Positions 1 through 11,192 of a DNA stretch of 64,000 nucleotides are shown one piece after another; the first letter of the stretch is position 1; each line of letters opens with the position of its first letter. This DNA is from Alphaproteobacteria bacterium (GTDB lineage: Bacteria > Pseudomonadota > Alphaproteobacteria > SP197): positions 2,528,001 through 2,592,000 of the forward strand of contig OZ245842.1 of NCBI GenBank assembly GCA_965228895.1. Reading direction: 5' to 3'. Position numbers and translations under genes: made by a program. The notes beneath the pieces are model-generated. The model was given only the letters and a program-made list of their open reading frames with translations, had not been told where the DNA came from and searched no databases.

Positions 1-1683
1 CTTGGCACTCATGGCCTCATAGGCTTCGGCGACCGCCTGCTTGTCGCCCAAACCGACCACGACGCCGCCGACATCGGATTTGTGGGCGATGTCCGCGCGC
101 GCTGTTTTCATGACGACGGGGTAACCGAGGCCGTCGGCCGCTGCGCATGCATCGTCCGATGTTGCGGCATCGCGCATCGCCGGGATCGGCGCACCCCACG
201 CGGCGATCATTTGAAGCGCGTCTTCGCTGGTGACCGAACCTTCGGCCAGCCTGCCGCGCCACATGGCAACAACGTCATCGCCGGGGCCCGGCGGCCGCTT
301 GGTCTCCGCGCGGTTGCGATGCCAATGGAAGAAGTGCCACAAGGCCAACAGGCCGGTTTCGGTGCCCATTAGCACGGGCACATCGAGCGCGCGCAGCCGC
401 GCGGCTTCGCCGCGGTCGATGGTGCTGTGCAGATTACCGAGCAATGCACACGGCTTATCGCTGGACTTGTGGAGCGCCGCGATGGCGTTGGTGGAGTCAT
501 ACAGAATACGGCGATCCGGCACCATGTTGGTGGCGATCACCACGGCGCCGACACCGGGGTCGTCGGCCAGGATCGGCGCGATCTGGGGCAGCACCTCGAA
601 ACCGCGCTCCCCCCAATAGTCGACGGGGTTCTCGGGCTCCAGACCGGGGTCCAGCACCTCTTCCAGACGCGCGCGCGTCGGCGCCTCGAGTTCGGTCAGC
701 TCGACACCGATATCGGCGGCCAGGTCGACGATGAGCTGACGCTCGCCGCCACTGTCGGTCTGGACGCCCAGTTGACCCGTTGTCGGCGCGCGCCCGCAGG
801 TCATGATCTCGAGCGTGTCGAGCATCTCGTCGAGGTTGCGCACCCGGATCAGATTGTGGCGGCGGAAGACGGCGTCATAGGCCGCATCCGACCCCGAGAG
901 CGCGCCACTATGGGAGAACGCGAACGCCTGCGACTTTTCCGTGCGCCCCAGTTTCAGGACGACGACCGGCAGCCCCTTCTGATCGGCACGTTCGACCGCC
1001 GCGATAAAGTTCTCGGGATCCCTTACCGCTTCCATGACGCAGGCAATCGCCTTGACGTCCGGCTCGTCGCACAGATGGTGGATGTAATCGGCCATGGTCG
1101 TCGCGACCTCGTTGCCGACCGAGACGCCGAACGCAAAACCGGCCTGCCGCTGGCTCGCCCCGACGCCCGACCATGTCGATCCGCTGTGCGACAGCAGGGC
1201 CACCGAACCCGGCTCGTCGTTGCCCGCCAGATGGGTCATGGAAAGCCAGACATCGTCGATGGCGTTGAAGAGGCCCATGCAGTTGGCGCCGCAGACGGCC
1301 ATACCGGACTCTCGCGCGATGGCCGCAATGCGTTCCTTCAGCGGCGGATCGCCAGGCGGCTCCTCGTGCAGACGACCGAGCAGCACGGCCGCCTTGACGC
1401 CGGCTTCGGCAGCCTCGGTCATTGCCGCCTCGATCCGGTTGTCGCCGACGGCCATGACGGCGCAGTCGGCAGGCTGCGGCAGATCATCGAACCGCGGCAC
1501 GCAGGGATGGCCGACAGCGGTCTCGTTTGTGGGGTGGATGCCGAAGAGCTGGCCGATAAACCGCGGACCCGCGCAATGGCTCATCACGTTCCGGCCGACA
1601 GAGCCTTCGCGCGTCGAAGCGCCCACCACGGCAATCGTGCGTGGGCGAAGCAAGGCGTTCATCGCCTCTTGTGATACGGTCAT
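1..1683 (-). CDS. Acetate--CoA ligase (ADP-forming) family / CoA-binding protein, 3' end runs off the window
   Basis: Not in the ORF track because it is truncated. Manual translation from ATG at 1683 gives MTVSQEAMNALLRPRTIAVVGAS..., CGANCMG, VSVGNE, LKLGRTE...SHSGAL, which are the family motifs. Confidence 0.85.
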   Translation of the reverse strand, partial: MTVSQEAMNALLRPRTIAVVGASTREGSVGRNVMSHCAGPRFIGQLFGIHPTNETAVGHPCVPRFDDLPQPADCAVMAVGDNRIEAAMTEAAEAGVKAAVLLGRLHEEPPGDPPLKERIAAIARESGMAVCGANCMGLFNAIDDVWLSMTHLAGNDEPGSVALLSHSGSTWSGVGASQRQAGFAFGVSVGNEVATTMADYIHHLCDEPDVKAIACVMEAVRDPENFIAAVERADQKGLPVVVLKLGRTEKSQAFAFSHSGALSGSDAAYDAVFRRHNLIRVRNLDEMLDTLEIMTCGRAPTTGQLGVQTDSGGERQLIVDLAADIGVELTELEAPTRARLEEVLDPGLEPENPVDYWGERGFEVLPQIAPILADDPGVGAVVIATNMVPDRRILYDSTNAIAALHKSSDKPCALLGNLHSTIDRGEAARLRALDVPVLMGTETGLLALWHFFHWHRNRAETKRPPGPGDDVVAMWRGRLAEGSVTSEDALQMIAAWGAPIPAMRDAATSDDACAAADGLGYPVVMKTARADIAHKSDVGGVVVGLGDKQAVAEAYEAMSAK

Positions 1684-1761
1684 GGAACTGGGCACCAGGG
1701 AGTGGGTGGCGCATCGAAGCCCAGGCGCCAGCCGACGTCAAGCAGGGGAATGGTTTCCGGG

Positions 1762-2475
1762 ATGTCCGGCACGCTTTTTTTGATCGGCACGCCGATCGGC
1801 AACTTGGATGACATCAGCCAGCGCGTGCTGACGACGCTGGGCGATCTCGATGCGTTGGCGTGTGAGGACACACGGCGCACCCGGAAGATCTATGAGCACT
1901 TCCAGCTCTCGAGCCCCAAGACCATCTTCGCCTGCCACGACCACAACGAAGACCAGGCGGTCAAACGGATCGCCGGCTTGTTGCGCGATGGCCGCAAGGT
2001 CGGGCTTGTGACCGACGCCGGTATGCCGGGCATCAGCGATCCCGGCTTTCGCGCCGTGCAGTCGGCCCTGGAGGACGAACACGACATTCAGGTGATACCG
2101 GGCCCAAGTGCGGTGGAGACCGCGCTCGCTGTCTCCGGCCTTTCTGCCGCCAGTTTCACGTTCAAGGGATTCGCGCCGAAGAAGTCCGGCAAGCGGCAGA
2201 ACTTCCTGGCCGCCGATGCGGCGATGCCGCACACGCTTGTTCTTTTTGAGTCGCCGCATCGAACCGGCGGCATGCTGGCCGACGCCCTCGCCGTGCTGGG
2301 CGATCGCCGGGCCGCCGTCTGCATCGAGCTCACCAAGATGTTCGAGGAGGTCGCACGCGGTTGGCTGTCGGAACTCGCCGAGCGGTTTGCCGAGGAGACG
2401 CCGCGCGGCGAGGTCACCGTGGTGATCGCGGGCAACAATCCGAAGTTCATGCGTCCCGAATCTCAGACGGCATGA
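1762..2475 (+). CDS. rsmI: 16S rRNA (cytidine1402-2'-O)-methyltransferase, short form (~237 aa)
   Basis: Motifs GTPIGNLDDIS, ACEDTRRT, DAGMPGISDPG, IPGPSA, FESPHR, ELTKMFEE, RGE. An alternative ATG lies at 1750. Confidence 0.93.
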   Translation: MSGTLFLIGTPIGNLDDISQRVLTTLGDLDALACEDTRRTRKIYEHFQLSSPKTIFACHDHNEDQAVKRIAGLLRDGRKVGLVTDAGMPGISDPGFRAVQSALEDEHDIQVIPGPSAVETALAVSGLSAASFTFKGFAPKKSGKRQNFLAADAAMPHTLVLFESPHRTGGMLADALAVLGDRRAAVCIELTKMFEEVARGWLSELAERFAEETPRGEVTVVIAGNNPKFMRPESQTA

Positions 2476-3554
2476 AGACGCTGCAGACGCGACGCGGTGA
2501 CCTCAAGCTGCCGGCGTTTTTGCCGGATGGCACGCGCGCGGTGGTGCGCGGCCTGGACGGTGATGATCTCACCGCCTGCGGGATCGACGCGATCATGGTG
2601 AACGCGCTGCACCTCTCCACCAACCCGGGCACGTCAACGGTGGCGGCGGTCGGTGGCATTCACCGGTTCATGGGCTGGGACGGCATCGTCGCTTCGGACT
2701 CCGGCGGCTTCCAGGCCTGGTCGCTGGCCCATGCCAACGCGAAGCTGGGCAGCGTGACCGACAAGGGGTTTGTCTATCGCCACGAAAAGAAGGGGCCTAA
2801 GAACCTGCTGACGCCGGAGAAGTGCATCCGCCATCAGATCGAGCTCGGCACCGATATCGTCTTCTGCCTCGACCAGTGCACCCATCCCGACGACAGTCCG
2901 GACGTGCAGGCCACCAGCGTCGCGCGCACGCTCGCCTGGGCCAAGCGGTGCCGTGACGAGTTCACGGCCCGGGTCGGCGAGCCGGGCGGTCCGGTCAACG
3001 ACCGCCCCCTGCTGTTCGCTGTCGTCCAGGGCGGCAACGACCCGGACCTGCGCAAGCGCTGTGCCGACCAGTTGGCCGAGATGGGTTTCGACGGTTTCGG
3101 TTTCGGCGGTTGGCCGATCGCCGACGATGGCGGTTTAACCGACATGGTCGCCCATGTCGCGGACCTGCTGCCGGCCGACGCGCCCAAACATGCGCTCGGA
3201 ATCGGCAAGCCGGATAATCTGGTAGCCGCATGGCGCGCAGGCTACCAGCTTTTCGACTGCGCCATCGCGACACGCGATGCTCGGCGGCGCCGCCTCTATG
3301 TGACATCAGATTTCGGCTCTATAGATTGGAATAGAAAAGATTTTTTCTCATTTCTTTATGTAGAAGATGAAGAACATGCGCGTGATGACAGCCCCCTCGA
3401 TTCCGCCATTGACCCGGGCGGTCCCTCGCGCGCCTATCTGCATCACCTCTTCAAGATCAAGGACAGCGCCGCCGAACGGCTGGCGACCAAACAGAACCTT
3501 CGCTTCTATGCGGCCATGATCGAACGTTTGCGCCAAACGGCGGCAGAACGGTGA
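2472..3554 (+). CDS. Divergent tRNA-guanine transglycosylase (TGT) family protein lacking the Zn-binding motif
   Basis: Motifs DSGGFQ, LDQCT, VQGG, GIGKP, FDC (nucleophile Asp), SRAYLHHL. ATG overlaps the rsmI stop (ATGA). Confidence 0.9.
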   Translation: MKTLQTRRGDLKLPAFLPDGTRAVVRGLDGDDLTACGIDAIMVNALHLSTNPGTSTVAAVGGIHRFMGWDGIVASDSGGFQAWSLAHANAKLGSVTDKGFVYRHEKKGPKNLLTPEKCIRHQIELGTDIVFCLDQCTHPDDSPDVQATSVARTLAWAKRCRDEFTARVGEPGGPVNDRPLLFAVVQGGNDPDLRKRCADQLAEMGFDGFGFGGWPIADDGGLTDMVAHVADLLPADAPKHALGIGKPDNLVAAWRAGYQLFDCAIATRDARRRRLYVTSDFGSIDWNRKDFFSFLYVEDEEHARDDSPLDSAIDPGGPSRAYLHHLFKIKDSAAERLATKQNLRFYAAMIERLRQTAAER

Positions 3555-4357
3555 CCACTGAGGCTCTCGAAACGGTCGTCACCGACCTCCGTACGAGCAC
3601 CAAGTATGCGACCCTGTGCGAGGCGACCCTTGAACGGATCGCCACATGGGCGCTTGACCGCCACCCTCGCCCGAAAGACGCGACCAAGGCCGCCAAACGC
3701 AAGCTGCATCAGGTGTTTGGCGCCTATCTCGATCCCGGCGCCATCGCCCTGGCCGAGCGCATCGTAGACGGCCTGGGGGACAGTCCGGAGGGTGCGGCCC
3801 TCGACGAGGCCGCCGACGCAATTCTGCGTCACCATGCGTCCAGCAAGGAGCGCCTTGCCAGCCTCGGCGATTTCTACCAGTCGCTCTGGCAGATCACCGG
3901 CGCACCGACCAGTGTTCTCGACATCGCCTGCGGCTTCTCGCCTTTTGCCCTGCCGATGATGGGCCTGCCAGCGGATTGCCGCTATGACGCCATCGATATC
4001 GACGCCCGCCTGATGGCCGTCGGTGAGCGGTTTCGCGCGCGTTGCGGCCAATCTGGCCGTGTCACGGCTGGCGATGTTCTGGTCAATCCGCCGGAGAACA
4101 GCACCGATGTCGCGTTGGTTCTGAAGACCCTGCCGTGCCTGGATCAACAGGAAACGGGCGCCGGTGCCCGCCTGTTGCGGCAGATCAAGGCCAGGGCCAT
4201 TGTCATCACCTATCCTGTGCGCTCGCTTGGTGGACGCGACAAGAACATGGCCGCGACCTATCGCGACAGCTTCGCCAAGGTGACGGCCGGCTTGGATCGG
4301 CGGGTTGATGAGGTCGAAGGCGGTGACGAGCTGGTCTTCGTCCTGACACAATTATGA
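3551..4357 (+). CDS. 16S rRNA (guanine1405-N7)-methyltransferase, Rmt/ArmA/Sgm (FmrO) family
   Basis: Motifs STKYATLC, KRKLHQVFGAY, HASSKERL, VLDIACG, DID, LKTLPCL, YPVRSLGGRDKNM..Y and ELVF are colinear with RmtB/Sgm motifs. GTG overlaps the TGT stop (GTGA). Confidence 0.9.
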   Translation: MTTEALETVVTDLRTSTKYATLCEATLERIATWALDRHPRPKDATKAAKRKLHQVFGAYLDPGAIALAERIVDGLGDSPEGAALDEAADAILRHHASSKERLASLGDFYQSLWQITGAPTSVLDIACGFSPFALPMMGLPADCRYDAIDIDARLMAVGERFRARCGQSGRVTAGDVLVNPPENSTDVALVLKTLPCLDQQETGAGARLLRQIKARAIVITYPVRSLGGRDKNMAATYRDSFAKVTAGLDRRVDEVEGGDELVFVLTQL

Positions 4358-4428
4358 TGACGAATTCCATGGAGAAATTGGCGGTTTCGCGCCATTGTTG
4401 GGACAACGATATAAACAAGAGGAGGCGC

Positions 4429-4980
4429 ATGATGCGCGCTTTGGCGTTTGCAGTGGTTCTTGCACCAACGCTTGCCTTTGCCGGCGTGTCCGGCCCGGCC
4501 ACCGTGGTCGATGGCGACACCTTAGGCCTGAACGGCGAGGAAATCTCGCTCTACGGCATTGACGCGTTGGAGATCACGCAGTCCTGCTCGGTCAACGATG
4601 AAGACTGGTTCTGCGGCTGGGATGCGGCCGACCGCCTGGAAGAAATCATCGGTGGGCGCGACGTTTCTTGCGAGCCGATGGGCACGGGTGCCGAAGGCGA
4701 AGCGCTCTATCGCTGCATGGCCGGTGAAGACGACCTGGCCGGCTTGATGCTGGACGAAGGCCTCGCGGTGACGGCCGCCGACACGGACGACGCCTATGTC
4801 GTGCGCGAAACCGCGGCTTCTGAAGCCGGTACCGGCATCTGGGCCGGCACCTTCATTGAACCGCAGACCTATCGCGACGGCGGTGGATGCGGTTGCTCGG
4901 CGCGCAAGAAGGCCATGCAGGATACCGCGGCCTACATGAAAGAGCAGCGCGAAGCCGAGGAAACCGAAGTCTCTAACTGA
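4429..4980 (+). CDS. Secreted thermonuclease (SNase)-fold protein, probably catalytically inactive
   Basis: Signal peptide, VVDGDT, GIDALE, C..CG, GIWAG. AGGAGG RBS lies upstream of ATG 4429. Confidence 0.75.
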   Translation: MMRALAFAVVLAPTLAFAGVSGPATVVDGDTLGLNGEEISLYGIDALEITQSCSVNDEDWFCGWDAADRLEEIIGGRDVSCEPMGTGAEGEALYRCMAGEDDLAGLMLDEGLAVTAADTDDAYVVRETAASEAGTGIWAGTFIEPQTYRDGGGCGCSARKKAMQDTAAYMKEQREAEETEVSN

Positions 4981-4989
4981 CGTCTCGTA

Positions 4990-6195
4990 TCAGACCCGTT
5001 CCAGCAGGGCGGCGATGCCCTGGCCGACGCCGATGCACATGGTAACGGCGGCGTAGCGCTCGTCGCGCCGGCGCATCTCGTAGGTGGCCGTCGCGGCAAG
5101 GCGGATGCCGCTGGCGCCGAGCGGGTGGCCAAAGGCGATGGCACCGCCATTGGGATTGACGTGCTCGGCATCGTCGGCCAGGCCGAGGTCACGGGTCACC
5201 GCAAGAACCTGGGCAGCAAACGCCTCGTTGACTTCGATGACGCCGATATCGCTGAGCGTCACGCCCAGGCGACCCAACAGTTTGCGTGTTGCCGGCGCCG
5301 GACCGATGCCCATGATGCGTGGCGGCACACCGGCGGTCGCCGCGCCGGCAATACGGGCAAGCGGTTCCAGACCATGGGCCGCCATGGCGGCCTCCGACGC
5401 AATCAGCATGGCGCCCGCGCCATCGTTCACCCCTGACGCATTGCCGGCGGTCACCGTGCCGCCGTCGCGAAACGGCGCCGGCAAACGCGCGAGTTTGTCG
5501 AGATCCGCATCAGCGCGTGGATGCTCGTCCGTATCGACAACCACGGGCTCGCGCTTGCGCTGTGGCACGTCGACCGGCACCAGTTCGTCGTTCAGCAGAT
5601 TCCCTGCCATTGCCTTGGCCGCGCGTTGTTGGCTGCGCCAGGCATAGGCGTCCTGGTCCTCGCGGCTGATCTGACGTTCTTCCGCCAGGTTCTCGGCGGT
5701 CTCCGGCATGGCATCGACGCCGAATTGTTTCTTCATCACCGGGTTGACGAAACGCCAGCCGATCGTCGTGTCGTAGATCTCGGCCTTGCGCGAAAACGCC
5801 TGGTCCGCCTTCGGCATGACGAAGGGTGCACGCGACATGCTCTCGACACCGCCGGCAATGACAAGGTCGGCCTCGCCGGTTCGGATCAAACGGGCGGCCT
5901 GGGCCATTGCCTCAAGGCCGGAACCGCAAAGTCGGTTCACCGTGACGCCGGAGACGGTCTCCGGCAAGCCGGCAAGCAGGGATGCCATGCGCGCGACATT
6001 GCGGTTGTCTTCGCCGGCTTGATTGACATTGCCGTAAATCACATCGTCGACCGCCGACCAGTCGACCTTGGGGTGGCGCGCCATCAACGCCTTCAGCGGC
6101 ACCACGGCCAGGTCGTCGGTGCGCACCGACGACAACGCGCCGCCGAAACGACCGAACGGCGTACGGATGGCATCACAAATAAAGGCCTCTGGCAT
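4990..6195 (-). CDS. pcaF: 3-oxoadipyl-CoA thiolase (PcaF/PaaJ)
   Basis: Motifs RTPFGRFGG, NQAGEDNRNVARM, NRLCGSG, NEAFA, GHPLGASG, CIGVGQG. Confidence 0.9.
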   Translation of the reverse strand: MPEAFICDAIRTPFGRFGGALSSVRTDDLAVVPLKALMARHPKVDWSAVDDVIYGNVNQAGEDNRNVARMASLLAGLPETVSGVTVNRLCGSGLEAMAQAARLIRTGEADLVIAGGVESMSRAPFVMPKADQAFSRKAEIYDTTIGWRFVNPVMKKQFGVDAMPETAENLAEERQISREDQDAYAWRSQQRAAKAMAGNLLNDELVPVDVPQRKREPVVVDTDEHPRADADLDKLARLPAPFRDGGTVTAGNASGVNDGAGAMLIASEAAMAAHGLEPLARIAGAATAGVPPRIMGIGPAPATRKLLGRLGVTLSDIGVIEVNEAFAAQVLAVTRDLGLADDAEHVNPNGGAIAFGHPLGASGIRLAATATYEMRRRDERYAAVTMCIGVGQGIAALLERV

Positions 6196-7602: not shown

Positions 7603-8361
7603 CTACCTGATGTGGGACGCGCCGTTGATGTCGACGGTCGTGCCGGTCGCATGAGGCGCCAGGCCGCTGGCGAGAAACGCGATGGTGTTGCCGACATCCT
7701 CAGCCGGCGCGATCGCGCCCAGCGGCACGTCCTTGATCATATCGTCCATGCCGTCTTGGGCGATGATGTCATCGACCATGTCGGTCGCGACAAATCCCGG
7801 CGCCACCGTATAGGCAAGAACACCCCAGTGCGCACATTTGCGCGCGATCGAGCGGGTAAGCGAGACGAGGCCACCTTTGGACGCCGCGTAGTTCATGCGG
7901 TCGTAGTCGTCGCCGCGGAAGGCGGCGCGGCTCGCCACGTTGACGATACTGCCGCCGCCACGCGCCCGAAAATGATCGACGGCATGGCGACATAACTGCG
8001 CCGCCGCCGTCAGGTTGACGCGCAGCGTGCGGTCCCATGACGCCAGGAAAGCATCGAGGTCGCCGTCCGGATCGGCGGGTTCGTAAATGCCGGCGTTGTT
8101 GACGAGCACATCGACCTGCCCCTGCCAGGCAAGCGCTTCGGACCAGATGGCCTCGGTCGCGGAAGGATCCGCCAGATCGCCCTGAACCAAACACGTCGAC
8201 GCTTCGTCAAACTCCGCCGCAAGCGCCTCGGCGGCGTCCCGGTTCCGGGCGTAGTGAATGATGACGCGCGCGCCGGCACCCGCCATCGCACGCACGGCGG
8301 CCGCGCCGATACCGCGCGCGCCACCGGTCACCAGAACGACCTTGCCATCGAACGCGATCAT
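7603..8361 (-). CDS. Short-chain dehydrogenase/reductase
   Basis: Motifs TGGARGIG, NNAGI, YAASKGG. ATG overlaps the upstream gene stop. Confidence 0.9.
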   Translation of the reverse strand: MIAFDGKVVLVTGGARGIGAAAVRAMAGAGARVIIHYARNRDAAEALAAEFDEASTCLVQGDLADPSATEAIWSEALAWQGQVDVLVNNAGIYEPADPDGDLDAFLASWDRTLRVNLTAAAQLCRHAVDHFRARGGGSIVNVASRAAFRGDDYDRMNYAASKGGLVSLTRSIARKCAHWGVLAYTVAPGFVATDMVDDIIAQDGMDDMIKDVPLGAIAPAEDVGNTIAFLASGLAPHATGTTVDINGASHIR

Positions 8362-9734
8362 GCCGAACCTCCGTAGCGGCGACATAAGAGTTCGAAGACG
8401 GCGCGGCTGCCTTGGGGGTCGCCACCCTTGGGCCGTCCGGGGCGGTCACTCAGACTCCAGCACAGCGTATCGATGTGCAGCCAAGGCACGTCGGTGCCGA
8501 CGAAGTTTTCAAGGAACAAAGCTGCCTGAATGTGATCGGCATACGGCCAATCGGCGATCGTGTTGGTGTCCGCGATATTGCTTGCCATCTTCTCTCGGTA
8601 GTCGCCCCAGATCGGGATCGGCCACATGCCGTCGTCAACGTCGTGGGATAGCGCGACTGCTTCATCGGAGAGCGTCTCGTCGTTGGCGAAGAGTGCCGGC
8701 AGATCAGGCCCCAGAGCCGCCCGTGCCGCGCCCGTCAACGTCGCCATATCAATCAGGAGTTCCGGTGGTTCTTCAACCGCGGCGGCCAGCGCATCGGCCA
8801 GGATGACACGGCCCTCCGCATCGGTATCGCCAATCTCGATGGTCGTGCCCTTGCGTGTCTTGATGACATCCATCGGACGGTAGGCGTCGCCGTCAACGGC
8901 GTTGTCGACAGCGGGAATAAGAACACGCAAACGTACACCAAGCCCCTCGCCCATCACCATGCGCGCGACCGCCAGCACGGCGGCGGCACCGCCCATGTCC
9001 TTCTTCATGCGTAACATGCCCGCGGCGTTCTTGAGGTTCAGGCCACCGCTGTCGAAACACACACCCTTGCCGACCAGCGTGACCGATGGCGCGCCCGGTT
9101 CACCCCACACCAAGTCGATCAGCCGGGGATGCCGGCTGCTGGCGCGACCGACCGCATGGATCGCCGGATAGTTGGCGTCCAGCAGTTCCCCACCTTCGAT
9201 GACGTTACAGGACCCACCAAAGTCGTTCGCCATGTCCATCGCGACAGCAGCCAGGTCACCGGGACCCATGTCCTCGGCCGGCGTGTTGATGAGGTCGCGC
9301 GCCATCCAGACCGCTTCGGCGATACCTGCAGCGCGACCGATCGCTTCACCCTCTGGCAACACAAGACGCGCGGCTTGGCCGGCGATATCGCGATAGCGGT
9401 CGAACCGGTAAGCACCCAACGCCCAGCCTAGATAGAGCGACTCAGACTGCGCCGGTGCGGCTTCAAGGCGATAGTCGCCAGGCGGTAATCCGTAGGCAAG
9501 ACCGCCGGTGGTCCATAGATCCGGCGCCTCGCCAAGGCCGACCACAACGCCTTCCAGGCTGCCTTTTATGCCGGGCAGGCCGCACCACGCACCAGCCTTC
9601 GCGTCAAAACCCATGTCCTTGACCCAGGTCGACAGGCGAGCCGGCTGTGCGTCCAGCCAGGCGGTCAGACCGTCTGTGCCGACCAAATGGATCGGCAGCG
9701 CGTCTGGCGTCTCGGCGGCAAAACAGGAGAGCAT
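8358..9734 (-). CDS. M17 leucyl aminopeptidase family protein (divergent copy)
   Basis: Motifs VGKGVCFDSGG, MKKDMGG, DTDAEGR, DMATLTGA. Confidence 0.9.
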   Translation of the reverse strand: MLSCFAAETPDALPIHLVGTDGLTAWLDAQPARLSTWVKDMGFDAKAGAWCGLPGIKGSLEGVVVGLGEAPDLWTTGGLAYGLPPGDYRLEAAPAQSESLYLGWALGAYRFDRYRDIAGQAARLVLPEGEAIGRAAGIAEAVWMARDLINTPAEDMGPGDLAAVAMDMANDFGGSCNVIEGGELLDANYPAIHAVGRASSRHPRLIDLVWGEPGAPSVTLVGKGVCFDSGGLNLKNAAGMLRMKKDMGGAAAVLAVARMVMGEGLGVRLRVLIPAVDNAVDGDAYRPMDVIKTRKGTTIEIGDTDAEGRVILADALAAAVEEPPELLIDMATLTGAARAALGPDLPALFANDETLSDEAVALSHDVDDGMWPIPIWGDYREKMASNIADTNTIADWPYADHIQAALFLENFVGTDVPWLHIDTLCWSLSDRPGRPKGGDPQGSRAVFELLCRRYGGSA

Positions 9735-9740
9735 GATGCG

Positions 9741-11114
9741 TTAACGCCCGTAACGTTCTTCCAGCAGGGCAAACAGACCACGCACCGCCATCGGCTCGCC
9801 GCCCGCCGGGCGACCGGGTCGGCCACTAAGATTCCACCCCATGATGTCGAAGTGGGCCCACGGGATCCCATCATCGACAAAATGCTGCAGGAACAAGGCA
9901 GCCGTGATGGCGCCGGCACCTGGACCGGACCCCGCGTTGTTGATGTCGGCGACGTCGCCCTTGATCATCTGTTGATACGGCTGCCATAGCGGCAGGCGCC
10001 ACGCGGGATCGGTATGGTCGGCGCCGGTCCTTCGGATGGTGTCGGCAAGGTCGTCGTCGTTACAGAAGAACGCCGGCAGGTCGGGACCCAGCGCAACGCG
10101 CGCGGCGCCAGTCAGGGTCGCCATGTCGATCAAAAGATCGGGCTTTTCGCTCGACGCTTCGGCCAGGGCATCACACATGATGACGCGCCCCTCAGCATCG
10201 GTGTTGCCGATTTCGATGGTGATGCCCTTGCGCGTCTTGATAACGTCGAGCGGGCGATAGGCGTTGCCGGCGACACTGTTCTCGACCGCCGGCACCAGGA
10301 CCCGCAAGCGCACCTTCAAACCGAGCCGCATGATCATGCCCGCCAACGCGAGGACACTGGCGCTCCCGCCCATGTCCTTTTTCATGAGTTTCATGCCGCT
10401 TGCCGGCTTCAGGTCGAGCCCGCCTGAATCGAAACACACGCCCTTGCCCACCAAGGTCAACTTGGGCGCGTCTTTATCGCCCCAGCGGATATCGATCAGG
10501 CGCGGCGGCCGCTGGCTCGCCCTGCCGACCGTATGGATCGAGGGGTAGTTCTGGGCCAGCAGGTCATCGCCGACGGTGATCTCGCACGTTGCTCCGCAGT
10601 GATCGGCAAGCGCCTCGGCGGCGTCGGCGAGCTCCTCCGGCCCCATGTCTTCGGCCGGCGTGTTGATGAGATCGCGCCCGAGGTAGAGGCTCTCGGCCAT
10701 CGCGGTGACGCGGTCTTCGCTGGCTTCGCCGGGCATCGCGAGCTTGGCGCGCGGTTCGGTATCGCGATACCGGGTAAAACGATAGCTCCCCAATGCCCAA
10801 CCCAGCGCCAGATCGTTCGCCTCACCGGAACCAAGCGCGCCATCGACGTCATAGACCAGGTTCGACGGCAGTACGCCCGGCAAACTGCCCAGCGAAAAGA
10901 CGTTGGTCCCATCGCCGACCCCAACGAGAACCCGTTCGATGTCACCGCTGGCAGAGGGGATCAGAAGATGCGTGTGCTCTTTCGCTTCAAATGTGTTGGC
11001 GCGGACCCAGGCCGCATCCCGCGCGGCAGCAGCCTCCAACCACTCGGTCAGACGCTCCGGCGTCAAAAGGATGAGAGGGACGACATCGCCGTCGGCCGCA
11101 GAAAAGCAGTCCAT
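9741..11114 (-). CDS. M17 leucyl aminopeptidase (PepB-like)
   Basis: Motifs VGKGVCFDSGG, MKKDMGG, ENSV, NTDAEGR, DMATLTGA, HFDI. Confidence 0.92.
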   Translation of the reverse strand: MDCFSAADGDVVPLILLTPERLTEWLEAAAARDAAWVRANTFEAKEHTHLLIPSASGDIERVLVGVGDGTNVFSLGSLPGVLPSNLVYDVDGALGSGEANDLALGWALGSYRFTRYRDTEPRAKLAMPGEASEDRVTAMAESLYLGRDLINTPAEDMGPEELADAAEALADHCGATCEITVGDDLLAQNYPSIHTVGRASQRPPRLIDIRWGDKDAPKLTLVGKGVCFDSGGLDLKPASGMKLMKKDMGGSASVLALAGMIMRLGLKVRLRVLVPAVENSVAGNAYRPLDVIKTRKGITIEIGNTDAEGRVIMCDALAEASSEKPDLLIDMATLTGAARVALGPDLPAFFCNDDDLADTIRRTGADHTDPAWRLPLWQPYQQMIKGDVADINNAGSGPGAGAITAALFLQHFVDDGIPWAHFDIMGWNLSGRPGRPAGGEPMAVRGLFALLEERYGR

Positions 11115-11192
11115 CAAGACCTCGTTGATCAGCAGAGGCGCGAGCCTAGAGCAAGTTGGTTTGCCATTACATCAATCAAAAGCAGACTCGTC

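Follow-up and report, generated by a model that had tools for sequence, protein, structure and literature searches.

The 64,000-nucleotide stretch of alphaproteobacterial DNA analyzed here (the window) carries a chromosomal operon in which a TGT-family paralog (TGTp) sits between two 16S rRNA methyltransferase genes, and we propose, with a probability of about one half, that TGTp is a base-exchange enzyme dependent on the m7G1405 methylase and acting at the 30S decoding site. Such conserved linkage is found across phyla, together with gene fusions, strict co-occurrence with the methylase and a retained set of catalytic residues around an altered pocket; from these features we infer for TGTp an rRNA target, a connection to N7-methylated guanine and its biological role. 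To our knowledge, no rRNA is known to contain a base-exchanged nucleotide.

All three genes lie on the forward strand: rsmI (1762..2475, 237 aa), for the 16S rRNA C1402 2'-O-methyltransferase; the TGTp gene (2472..3554, 360 aa), whose product has the TGT fold with its catalytic aspartates kept; and a gene with a GTG start for an Rmt/FmrO-family 16S rRNA methyltransferase (3551..4357, 268 aa). Read directly from the sequence, the rsmI stop overlaps the TGTp start in ATGA (2472-2475) and the TGTp stop overlaps the Rmt start in GTGA (3551-3554), and the family models agree with the assignment of three coupled, same-strand RNA-modification genes made in the first-pass annotation. Also upheld is its remark that que, yajC/secD and yraN genes are missing nearby: none of these families occurs within 11 kb of the operon, where the genes are metabolic (acyl-CoA-synthetase-like, thiolase, SDRs, DUF1203, M17 peptidases), and no mobile elements were found in the 11 kb examined around it. 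With such ordinary metabolic neighbors, a self-resistance role of the kind found in aminoglycoside producers was rejected. Immediately downstream, an open reading frame listed from 4354 encodes an SNase-like protein (4429..4980, forward strand; PF00565, E 2.5e-05), the start of which, by eye, is more likely at 4429 or 4432, with AGGAGG at 4420-4425 ahead of it; this start leaves a 72-nt gap after Rmt, and the coupled unit therefore comprises three genes. The N-terminus of the SNase-like protein resembles, again by eye, a signal peptide, and its gene follows Rmt in the family loci L006-L016, including three without TGTp; it is the conserved downstream neighbor of Rmt in the family and probably lies outside the RNA-modification function.

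The TGTp gene itself contains an AT-rich island (3297..3386, forward strand, codons 276-305), with a GC content of 0.33 and a GC3 of 0.20 versus a gene-wide GC3 of 0.77. A GC minimum lies at the same codons in 7/7 family orthologs examined (L006-L010, L012 and L013; GC 0.27-0.46) and is absent there from five of six genes of other phyla, one of which (L101) has a mild minimum nearby, at codon 286 (0.37 in a 0.54-GC gene). An internal promoter was considered for the island and rejected: a single σ70-like match (3300-3327) compares with 0.6 expected and is not significant.

As judged from its sequence, the third gene probably encodes an m7G1405 enzyme. Its product matches the FmrO model PF07091 at 177.5 bits, covering model positions 2-255 of 255, falls just under the NCBIfam Rmt cut-off (NF000466, 230.1 vs. 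250 bits) and finds its best solved relative in Sgm (3lcu, E 2.3e-45). In RmtC a set of residues has been described as critical for 30S docking, h44 distortion and G1405 positioning; here RmtC K20, Y21, H54, Y60, S107, D160, K204, R241 and M245 are conserved as K18, Y19, H53, Y59, S97, D149, K192, R229 and M233, R50 and K236 are conservatively changed to K and R, and R211, T207 and N248 are not kept, the latter two having been described as only modestly conserved. Because these critical residues are conserved, and because the characterized rmtG, rmtD2 and rmtB2 lie in similar operons, the partner of TGTp is taken to be a real G1405 enzyme type. It shares PF07091 with Sgm and other producer or intrinsic m7G1405 enzymes but, unlike them, has no aminoglycoside biosynthesis cluster nearby and is inherited within its alphaproteobacterial family; to RmtG, RmtD and RmtB it is only distantly related. 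An Rmt gene is present in 27 of the 33 genomes of the window's order, which consists of one family, such that the order-level search added little. In ten family genomes Rmt and the SNase-like gene are retained and TGTp is missing; the Rmt proteins of these ten branch within the family clade, and Rmt can thus do without TGTp.

The operon's rsmI (TIGR00096, 196.8 bits vs. a cut-off of 167.9; PF00590, E 1.6e-29) is not an extra copy, as it is the sole match in a whole-genome search and hence the genome's only rsmI. In E. coli, the available text of an earlier study reports, m7G1405 formed by ArmA impeded RsmI methylation of C1402 (PMC3923132), and this hindrance provides a rationale for the linkage of rsmI with the other two genes. 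The first-pass annotation had also called for a search for a separate canonical tgt, and one is present: it scores 513 bits, lies ~166 kb from the operon and has queA 3 kb away, so that TGTp is not the genome's only TGT.

The adjacency of TGTp and Rmt, which the first-pass annotation had proposed to survey, is conserved well beyond this genome. Given the second TGT as well, the two outcomes named there as refuting the proposal, an adjacency not shared by other genomes and a sole TGT, were both decided in its favor. Within the family, TGTp adjoins both Rmt and rsmI in all nine TGTp-bearing genomes (G000 and eight others, with 40 relatives searched); elsewhere it adjoins Rmt in 5/6 subfamily loci from Latescibacterota, Chloroflexota and a Xanthobacteraceae MAG, and it lies alongside FmrO, in both gene orders, at 27 of the 30 best-scoring FmrO loci drawn from 55 FmrO-positive Chloroflexota genomes. 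As a negative control, neither Rmt nor rsmI was found within ~6 kb of canonical tgt at any of 68 loci (among the 80 matches listed), and set against the 27/30 best FmrO loci with the paralog this places the TGTp-Rmt arrangement far beyond chance. Across 251 Chloroflexota genomes, TGTp (counted at 438 bits or more, with one further copy truncated at a contig end) is present in 52, and FmrO is present in every one of these; conversely, TGTp occurs in 0/196 genomes lacking FmrO, where it should be borne in mind that most genomes are MAGs of unstated completeness, so that absences carry little weight, and that related genomes are not independent counts. Only three genomes have FmrO alone: G177, in which TGTp is cut by a contig end, and G185 and G248, with FmrO fragments only. 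The linkage is strict in the crown group of the TGTp clade and not in its basal small genomes.

This distribution bears directly on the reading in which the three are independent housekeeping RNA-modification genes sharing a promoter, TGTp having a job unrelated to Rmt. Operons of unrelated translation-related genes are common, and the persistence of Rmt without TGTp in the ten family genomes described above would fit such a scenario. Against it, however, the linkage outlasts gene-order changes across phyla, and TGTp and FmrO occur together even when unlinked, as in G116, G140 and G212, which carry them on different contigs. The two functions are moreover fused in single proteins, twice as TGT-FmrO (P0125 and P0126), with a third protein joining RsmH to TGT (P0127), and the control loci of canonical tgt (among the matches listed) are devoid of an Rmt match. 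Taken together, these observations make mere promoter sharing improbable. In 27 wider loci, the only neighbors recurring beyond lineage synteny were RsmI-like (8), RsmF-like (7) and RsmE (6) genes; a que gene cluster was not among the recurrent neighbors of these loci. The same enzyme families thus recur beside TGTp as make up the E. coli helix-44 set RsmH/RsmI/RsmE/RsmF, although the latter includes neither a TGT-family member nor an m7G1405 enzyme; the available text of a study of the E. coli enzymes describes a common late 30S substrate (h44) and mutually order-dependent action (PMC13694986).

With respect to TGTp itself, sequence and model comparisons suggest that it is a catalytically competent base-exchange enzyme of a distinct TGT subfamily. 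It matches PF01702 at 274 bits, does not reach the equivalog cut-off of Tgt (TIGR00430, 263.9 vs. 306.75 bits) and yields a confident AF2 model (pLDDT 94.8), which Foldseek superimposes on Z. mobilis TGT structures with a TM score of 0.87 and an rmsd of 2.4 Å. It thus shares the fold of Z. mobilis and E. coli Tgt, at 34-37% identity, and keeps the Z. mobilis D280 nucleophile, D102, D156, Q203, G229/G230 and C158, with D76/D134/D262 of TGTp aligning to D102/D156/D280. A family tree of 92 rows separates canonical Tgt (34 rows, SH-aLRT 100) from a second clade of 55 rows (SH-aLRT 97), to which the window's TGTp belongs. The TGT fold has been retargeted before, in archaeal ArcTGT at tRNA G15 and in DpdA on DNA; the window's TGTp, unlike either, scores far under both model cut-offs, and an archaeosine-type identity (TIGR00432, 80.5 vs. 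350 bits) and a DpdA identity (NF041059, 17.2 vs. 200 bits) were both rejected.

Several features set TGTp apart from canonical Tgt, among them a change on the N7 side of the base-binding pocket. In the Z. mobilis enzyme, as given in the available text of the structural work, the main-chain amide of A232 reads guanine N7 via a water, and the L231/A232 peptide flips with E235 (PMC3660597). TGTp has W214-P215 in place of L231-A232, with a proline, and thus no amide, at the A232 position, and the residue at position 218, equivalent to E235, varies; the Leu231/Ala232 and Glu235 switch, which reads guanine N7 first and the preQ1 side chain next, is therefore not found in TGTp. All four zinc ligands are likewise lost in the window's TGTp (C318/C320/C323/H349 to S311/I313/G316/Q341), as they are in its family copies, and are kept in subfamily members of other phyla. 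There is a ~15-residue insertion ahead of the zinc motif and a 4-residue insertion in the tRNA-A37 loop, the E. coli counterpart of which, L98-I104, holds tRNA A37 according to the available text on that enzyme (PMC13416341). Finally, in most genomes examined TGTp coexists with a second, canonical-scoring TGT.

Loss of the zinc site in the family, along with the fusion and linkage to methylases, could be taken as a sign that TGTp has no catalytic role and instead binds RNA, positioning or opening h44 for its partners, much like the inactive QTRT2 subunit of eukaryotic TGT (PMC3660597, available text). Yet D76, D134, D262, Q186, G212-G213, W214 and P215 do not vary across 83 subfamily sequences, and such invariance of the aspartates, Q186 and G212-G213 is unexpected for an inactive scaffold; the catalytic and pocket residues are, furthermore, likewise kept in the fusions and in copies on plasmids. 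We consequently regard a purely structural helper as very improbable. A complex prediction for TGTp with Rmt, run with two alignments, returned scores of 0.00 and 0.00 and is evidence neither way.

A catalytic TGTp could, of course, still act on tRNA, its preference for base or tRNA having shifted, and be kept with the methylases because alterations to decoding on its tRNA and rRNA sides are co-adapted or co-regulated. The full TGT fold and the complete set of catalytic residues are what such an enzyme would have, and the basal branches of the TGTp clade, from G301, G050, G048, G047 and G302 (genomes of 0.8-1.4 Mb), have the TGTp type as their only TGT; no FmrO was found in the four of them searched (G301 was outside the search), and the W-P or x-P pocket may therefore suit an ordinary tRNA role. 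In addition, at E <= 1e-20 QueC is somewhat commoner with TGTp in Chloroflexota, occurring in 23/52 genomes vs. 45/199 of the others, which may leave room for a 7-deazaguanine link, shared ancestry being an alternative explanation. On the other hand, a second TGT-family gene is already present in 47 of the 52 TGTp-bearing Chloroflexota genomes (E <= 1e-60), and the second TGT was confirmed as canonical in the window's genome and in 5/5 other-phylum genomes searched with PF01702. The fusions to FmrO and RsmH, the strict FmrO dependence (52/52), the insertion in the loop that in E. coli holds tRNA A37 and the lack of QueC in the window's own genome, a single contig that is 98.7% complete, all speak against a continued tRNA role, which we hold to be unlikely while still a serious contender.

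A place in the queuosine pathway in particular is argued against by the separate canonical tgt with its queA, by the absence of QueC both from that genome and, at E <= 1e-20, from 29 of the 52 TGTp-bearing Chloroflexota genomes, and by the lack of a preQ1 riboswitch, none of which was found by Rfam at seven loci. The Rfam search of the whole window gave no element at the gathering score, that of L017-L022 gave only one tRNA (in L022), and at E <= 1 positions 1-6000 of the window gave two chance-level matches only. The suggestion of the first-pass annotation that the middle gene acts with decoding-site methylases rather than in queuosine insertion accordingly gains ground from the FmrO co-occurrence, the FmrO and RsmH fusions and the RsmI, RsmH, RsmF and RsmE neighbors.

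The same module is found beside rmtG, rmtD2 and rmtB2 on clinical plasmids (pKP13f, 2964TF and p12100-NDM). pKP13f carries rsmH-TGTp-rmtG as overlapping genes followed by an RsmI-type fragment, and the other plasmids carry TGTp-rmtD2 and TGTp-(metallophosphoesterase)-rmtB2, their TGTp being 42-45% identical to that of the window and falling in the same clade. In contrast to the window's chromosomal operon, the plasmid copies were captured near IS91/ISCR-type elements in Enterobacterales, and their TGTp keeps the CxCxxC zinc motif. That the system is undescribed, as first claimed, holds only in part: the gene order has been remarked upon, in a review placing rmtG in an operon with rsmH, tgt and rsmL (PMC9311965) and in the Kp13 genome report, where a CDS for a putative tRNA ribosyltransferase is recorded directly upstream of rmtG (PMC3904158), and the available text of neither states a function. 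Our literature searches for a function of TGTp gave such gene-order remarks only. It is also important to note that rmtG isolates show aminoglycoside MICs above 256 (PMC9311965, available text) and that the rmtG plasmids examined carry TGTp beside rmtG, which, presuming that TGTp is expressed in these isolates, speaks against a simple, efficient m7G-to-G eraser.

In light of these results, we propose that the operon is a native chromosomal unit that would modify the 16S decoding site at the top of helix 44, with RsmI making Cm1402 and the Rmt-type enzyme making m7G1405. The most likely substrate of TGTp would then be the 30S subunit, with G1405 or an adjacent position as its site, and not tRNA position 34. 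In the variant that we favor, it would handle the N7-methylated guanine made by its Rmt partner and replace m7G, whether to check the order of h44 modification or to install another base. More tentatively, TGTp may be the first base-exchange enzyme on rRNA, possibly removing m7G1405 from h44 and inserting guanine or another base: m7G1405, as the better leaving group, would be taken from h44 of the assembled 30S subunit, either resetting premature m7G1405 so that RsmI and RsmH could act or installing an as yet unseen nucleotide in the decoding site, and clinical isolates may have the same step at work next to rmtG, rmtD and rmtB. The role of TGTp is testable with existing methods, namely 9-deazaguanine trapping, which the available text on E. 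coli TGT describes for an enzyme-RNA intermediate (PMC13416341), mass spectrometry of h44 fragments and m7G mapping.

For TGT enzymes, the known substrates of base exchange are tRNA and, in the case of DpdA, DNA. Should TGTp indeed be tied to the decoding-site methylases, base exchange would extend to rRNA or, alternatively, the operon would reveal that tRNA and rRNA modification are connected in a hitherto unknown way. Enzymes of the partner's type confer pan-aminoglycoside resistance, and since TGTp accompanies rmtG, rmtD2 and rmtB2 on plasmids, what it does has a bearing on where these resistance genes came from, on their fitness cost and possibly on how they work.

Reading the sequence directly confirmed the three forward-strand open reading frames of the first-pass annotation, with both stop/start overlaps it had described, ATGA at 2472-2475 between genes 1 and 2 and GTGA at 3551-3554 between genes 2 and 3. 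Gene 1 (1762-2475, 237 aa) is rsmI and passes the TIGR00096 cut-off (196.8 bits against 167.9); gene 2 (2472-3554, 360 aa) encodes a TGT paralog (TGTp) that matches PF01702 over its full length at 274 bits and falls below the cut-off of the Tgt equivalog model (263.9 against 306.75 bits); and gene 3 (3551-4357, 268 aa) encodes an Rmt-type methyltransferase with a full-length FmrO domain (177.5 bits), slightly below the cut-off of the NCBIfam Rmt model (230.1 against 250 bits). The next gene on the same strand (4429-4980) encodes an SNase-like protein whose N-terminus resembles a signal peptide; judged by eye, it likely starts at 4429 or 4432, behind an AGGAGG and 72 nt past gene 3. The 11 kb examined around the operon hold ordinary metabolic genes and no visible mobile element, with two M17 (leucyl) aminopeptidase genes, both of 458 aa, in tandem on the reverse strand (8358-9734 and 9741-11117); a search of seven loci for a preQ1 riboswitch was negative.

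The assembly is a single contig of 5.5 Mb, 98.7% complete, and the question raised in the first pass, whether separate canonical copies of tgt and rsmI exist, has a divided answer: a canonical tgt (513 bits) lies ~166 kb away from the operon and 3 kb from queA, whereas the operon rsmI is the only one in the genome, as is the operon FmrO gene. QueC was not found in this genome at E ≤ 0.001, and QueF gave only a sub-threshold match (26.3 bits against 27.3). Since canonical Tgt and queA are present and QueC was not found, the organism's tRNA queuosine pathway appears to be fed by a salvaged precursor via canonical Tgt, and the operon TGT is an extra gene beside it.

Beyond this genome, a protein search returned a large TGTp subfamily at 53-59% identity to the window's protein, compared with 37% for the genome's own canonical Tgt, with named sources in Latescibacterota, Hydrogenedentes, Coatesbacteria, Ignavibacteriaceae and Myxococcota. 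A scan of genome contigs gave at least 80 loci; among the matches listed, 68 were canonical Tgt, none of them accompanied by an Rmt or rsmI match within about 6 kb. Rmt lies directly downstream of TGTp in five of the six top loci (44-55% identity), and at the sixth, in a Xanthobacteraceae MAG, an RsmF-like gene and rsmI adjoin TGTp while FmrO is elsewhere in two pieces. These adjacent pieces, on another contig (G046:C7:136528-137216), cover model positions 2-104 and 129-236 and may represent a split or frameshifted gene.

FmrO is present in 55 of 251 sampled Chloroflexota genomes, with TGTp alongside, in either gene order, at 27 of the 30 best-scoring FmrO loci. A TGTp profile search of the same 251 genomes cleanly separated TGTp (438-508 bits, and one copy truncated at a contig end) from canonical Tgt (at most 323 bits): all 52 genomes with TGTp carry FmrO, and none of the 196 without FmrO carries TGTp (51/51 in 247 genomes without those flagged unpublished, namely G088, which has both genes, and G195, G223 and G277, which have neither). 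Three genomes have FmrO and no listed TGTp, one because TGTp is cut by a contig end (G177) and two with FmrO fragments only (G185, G248). The co-occurrence goes beyond mere adjacency, because G116, G140 and G212 carry the two genes on separate contigs and G257 carries them 7 kb apart.

An alternative is that TGTp still acts as a tRNA enzyme, which we judge unlikely, though not negligible. A second TGT-family gene (E ≤ 1e-60) is found in all five other-phyla genomes checked and in 47 of the 52 TGTp-bearing Chloroflexota genomes, and was confirmed as canonical Tgt in the five genomes searched with PF01702. QueC was not found at E ≤ 1e-20 in 29 of the 52, including G126, G281 and G292, where the matches sit on megabase contigs, and TGTp shows no dependence on QueC, the window's closed genome being one example; QueC is nevertheless commoner with TGTp (23/52) than in the remaining Chloroflexota genomes (45/199). 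The earliest-branching members of the TGTp clade come from five genomes, 0.8-1.4 Mb in size, whose only TGT is of the TGTp type (loci L024, L028, L023, L025 and L026; genomes G301, G050, G047, G048 and G302); two of these rows were flagged in the tree for odd composition. A search of four of the genomes (all except G301) found no FmrO. The genes neighboring TGTp at the five loci are unrelated (chaperonin, pyruvate kinase, DUF11 proteins).

The targets at the top of 16S helix 44 (h44) are C1402 for RsmH and RsmI, C1407 for RsmF, U1498 for RsmE and G1405 for Rmt. When ORFs of 27 wider loci were clustered (the window, L017-L022 and 20 Chloroflexota loci picked for contig room from the 55 FmrO-positive genomes), the only neighbors recurring past the synteny of one close group were RsmI-like TP_methylase (8 loci), RsmF-like (7) and RsmE (6) genes. 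One recurrent form (L021, L147-L149) reads RsmI paralog, TGTp, FmrO, FmrO, RsmF-like, and RsmE and an additional, true rsmI lie close by; in this Anaerolineae-type operon (5231-10927 in L021) the RsmI paralog is divergent, 28% identical to the window's RsmI, and the two FmrO paralogs belong to separate clades. The E. coli enzymes RsmH, RsmI, RsmF and RsmE are described as sharing a late 30S substrate with mutual dependence on their order of action (PMC13694986). The partnership also extends to fusions, two TGT-FmrO (P0125, P0126) and one RsmH-TGT (P0127), all with catalytic residues kept. A second, distinct kind of TGT-methyltransferase fusion comprises more than 100 canonical-type Tgt proteins (P0129-P0244, 33-37% identity to the query) with an N-terminal PF05430 (MnmC-type methyltransferase) domain, from sources including Anaeromyxobacter, Binatia, Verrucomicrobiota and Spirochaetes; in P0128, a TGT domain cut down to model positions 8-269 is joined to DUF5680.

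Closer to the window, eight of 40 relatives searched carry TGTp at 70-92% identity (G001, G002, G003, G005, G007, G010, G012, G014), in every case between rsmI and Rmt. In ten more family members (G013, G016-G024) an Rmt homolog (35-46% identity) is present, TGTp is missing and rsmI lies elsewhere; in the three such loci fetched (L014-L016) Rmt is followed by the SNase-like gene, which lies downstream of Rmt in all family loci L006-L016. Because the Rmt of these TGTp-less genomes nests within the family Rmt clade, TGTp was most simply lost there and Rmt retained. Within the order, 27 of 33 genomes carry FmrO, and among 301 sampled genomes of the class TGTp is found only in the window's own and in G005. 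Both the TGTp and Rmt trees place the family beside Latescibacterota and not other Proteobacteria, which suggests that the two genes were acquired together through horizontal transfer.

The same pairing is found on clinical plasmids. K. pneumoniae pKP13f (L127, 3060-6126) has overlapping rsmH, TGTp and rmtG, followed by 98 aa of a TP_methylase (RsmI-type) that an IS91-like element truncates; on plasmid 2964TF TGTp precedes rmtD2, and on a Providencia plasmid it precedes rmtB2 with a metallophosphoesterase gene in between. At 42-45% identity to the window's protein, these copies group with the RsmH-TGT fusion in a single clade. Published accounts describe rmtG in an operon with rsmH, tgt and rsmL (PMC9311965) and, upstream of rmtG, a CDS for a putative tRNA ribosyltransferase (PMC3904158); our literature search found gene order mentioned and no published role for the plasmid or operon TGT. 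Isolates carrying rmtG are reported with MICs >256 (PMC9311965) while the rmtG plasmids examined carry TGTp beside it, so a plain, efficient m7G-to-G eraser is unlikely.

The closest solved relative of gene 3 is Sgm (E 2.3e-45). Aligned to RmtC (8ghu), it conserves K20, Y21, H54, Y60, S107, D160, K204, R241 and M245, residues described in the RmtC cryo-EM study as critical for docking, h44 distortion or G1405 positioning, with R50 and K236 replaced conservatively; 33 TGTp-linked Rmt sequences all share its own Y19, H53, S97 and M233. Given these residues and the characterized rmtG, rmtD and rmtB in like operons, gene 3 is probably a true m7G1405 methyltransferase.

The AF2 model of TGTp (pLDDT 94.8) superposes on Z. 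mobilis TGT with a TM of 0.87 and keeps D102, D156, Q203, G229/G230, C158 and the nucleophile D280 (Z. mobilis numbering), all invariant in 83 subfamily sequences. Subfamily-wide insertions lie ahead of the zinc motif and in the loop corresponding to the one with which E. coli TGT holds tRNA A37 (PMC13416341). Only in the window's family have all four zinc ligands disappeared, and there the insertion directly preceding the lost motif is encoded by an AT-rich island (3297-3386; GC 0.33, GC3 0.20 against 0.77 gene-wide). All 7/7 family orthologs examined (L011 left out) have their lowest GC at these same codons; five of six genes of other phyla do not, and L101 has a mild minimum close by at codon 286. 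In the Z. mobilis enzyme the main-chain amide of A232 recognizes N7 of the departing guanine via a bridging water, and preQ1 is accepted once the L231/A232 peptide, along with E235, has flipped (PMC3660597). Throughout the subfamily L231-A232 is replaced by an invariant W214-P215, and the residue at the E235 position varies. Because proline has no main-chain amide of this kind, the N7-facing part of the pocket is rebuilt, and N7 is the atom methylated by the partner enzyme, a link to m7G that is suggestive only.

The most informative pattern is an asymmetry: in the crown group TGTp is never seen without FmrO, and FmrO sometimes stands without TGTp. Together with the fusions, the h44-only neighbors, the intact catalytic center and the pocket rebuilt on its N7 side, it leads us to propose that TGTp would act downstream of, or because of, m7G1405 methylation; that these genes form a genuine functional module we regard as very likely (probability about 0.9). 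Its likeliest substrate would be the 30S subunit, although we give an rRNA or 30S target only even odds, and that the base handled is m7G1405 itself is a tentative, rather doubtful proposal. ArmA-made m7G1405 was reported to impede C1402 methylation by RsmI (PMC3923132), a possible reason for the rsmI/rsmH linkage; TGTp could serve as a checkpoint that removes m7G placed too early, or could swap m7G for another base, and either would fit the ArmA/RsmI observation. What is new here is the strict 52/52 co-occurrence of TGTp and FmrO, unlinked genes included, without QueC dependence, the assignment of the W-P change to the peptide that reads N7 and, within the window's family, the loss of the zinc site and the apparent loss of TGTp with retention of Rmt.
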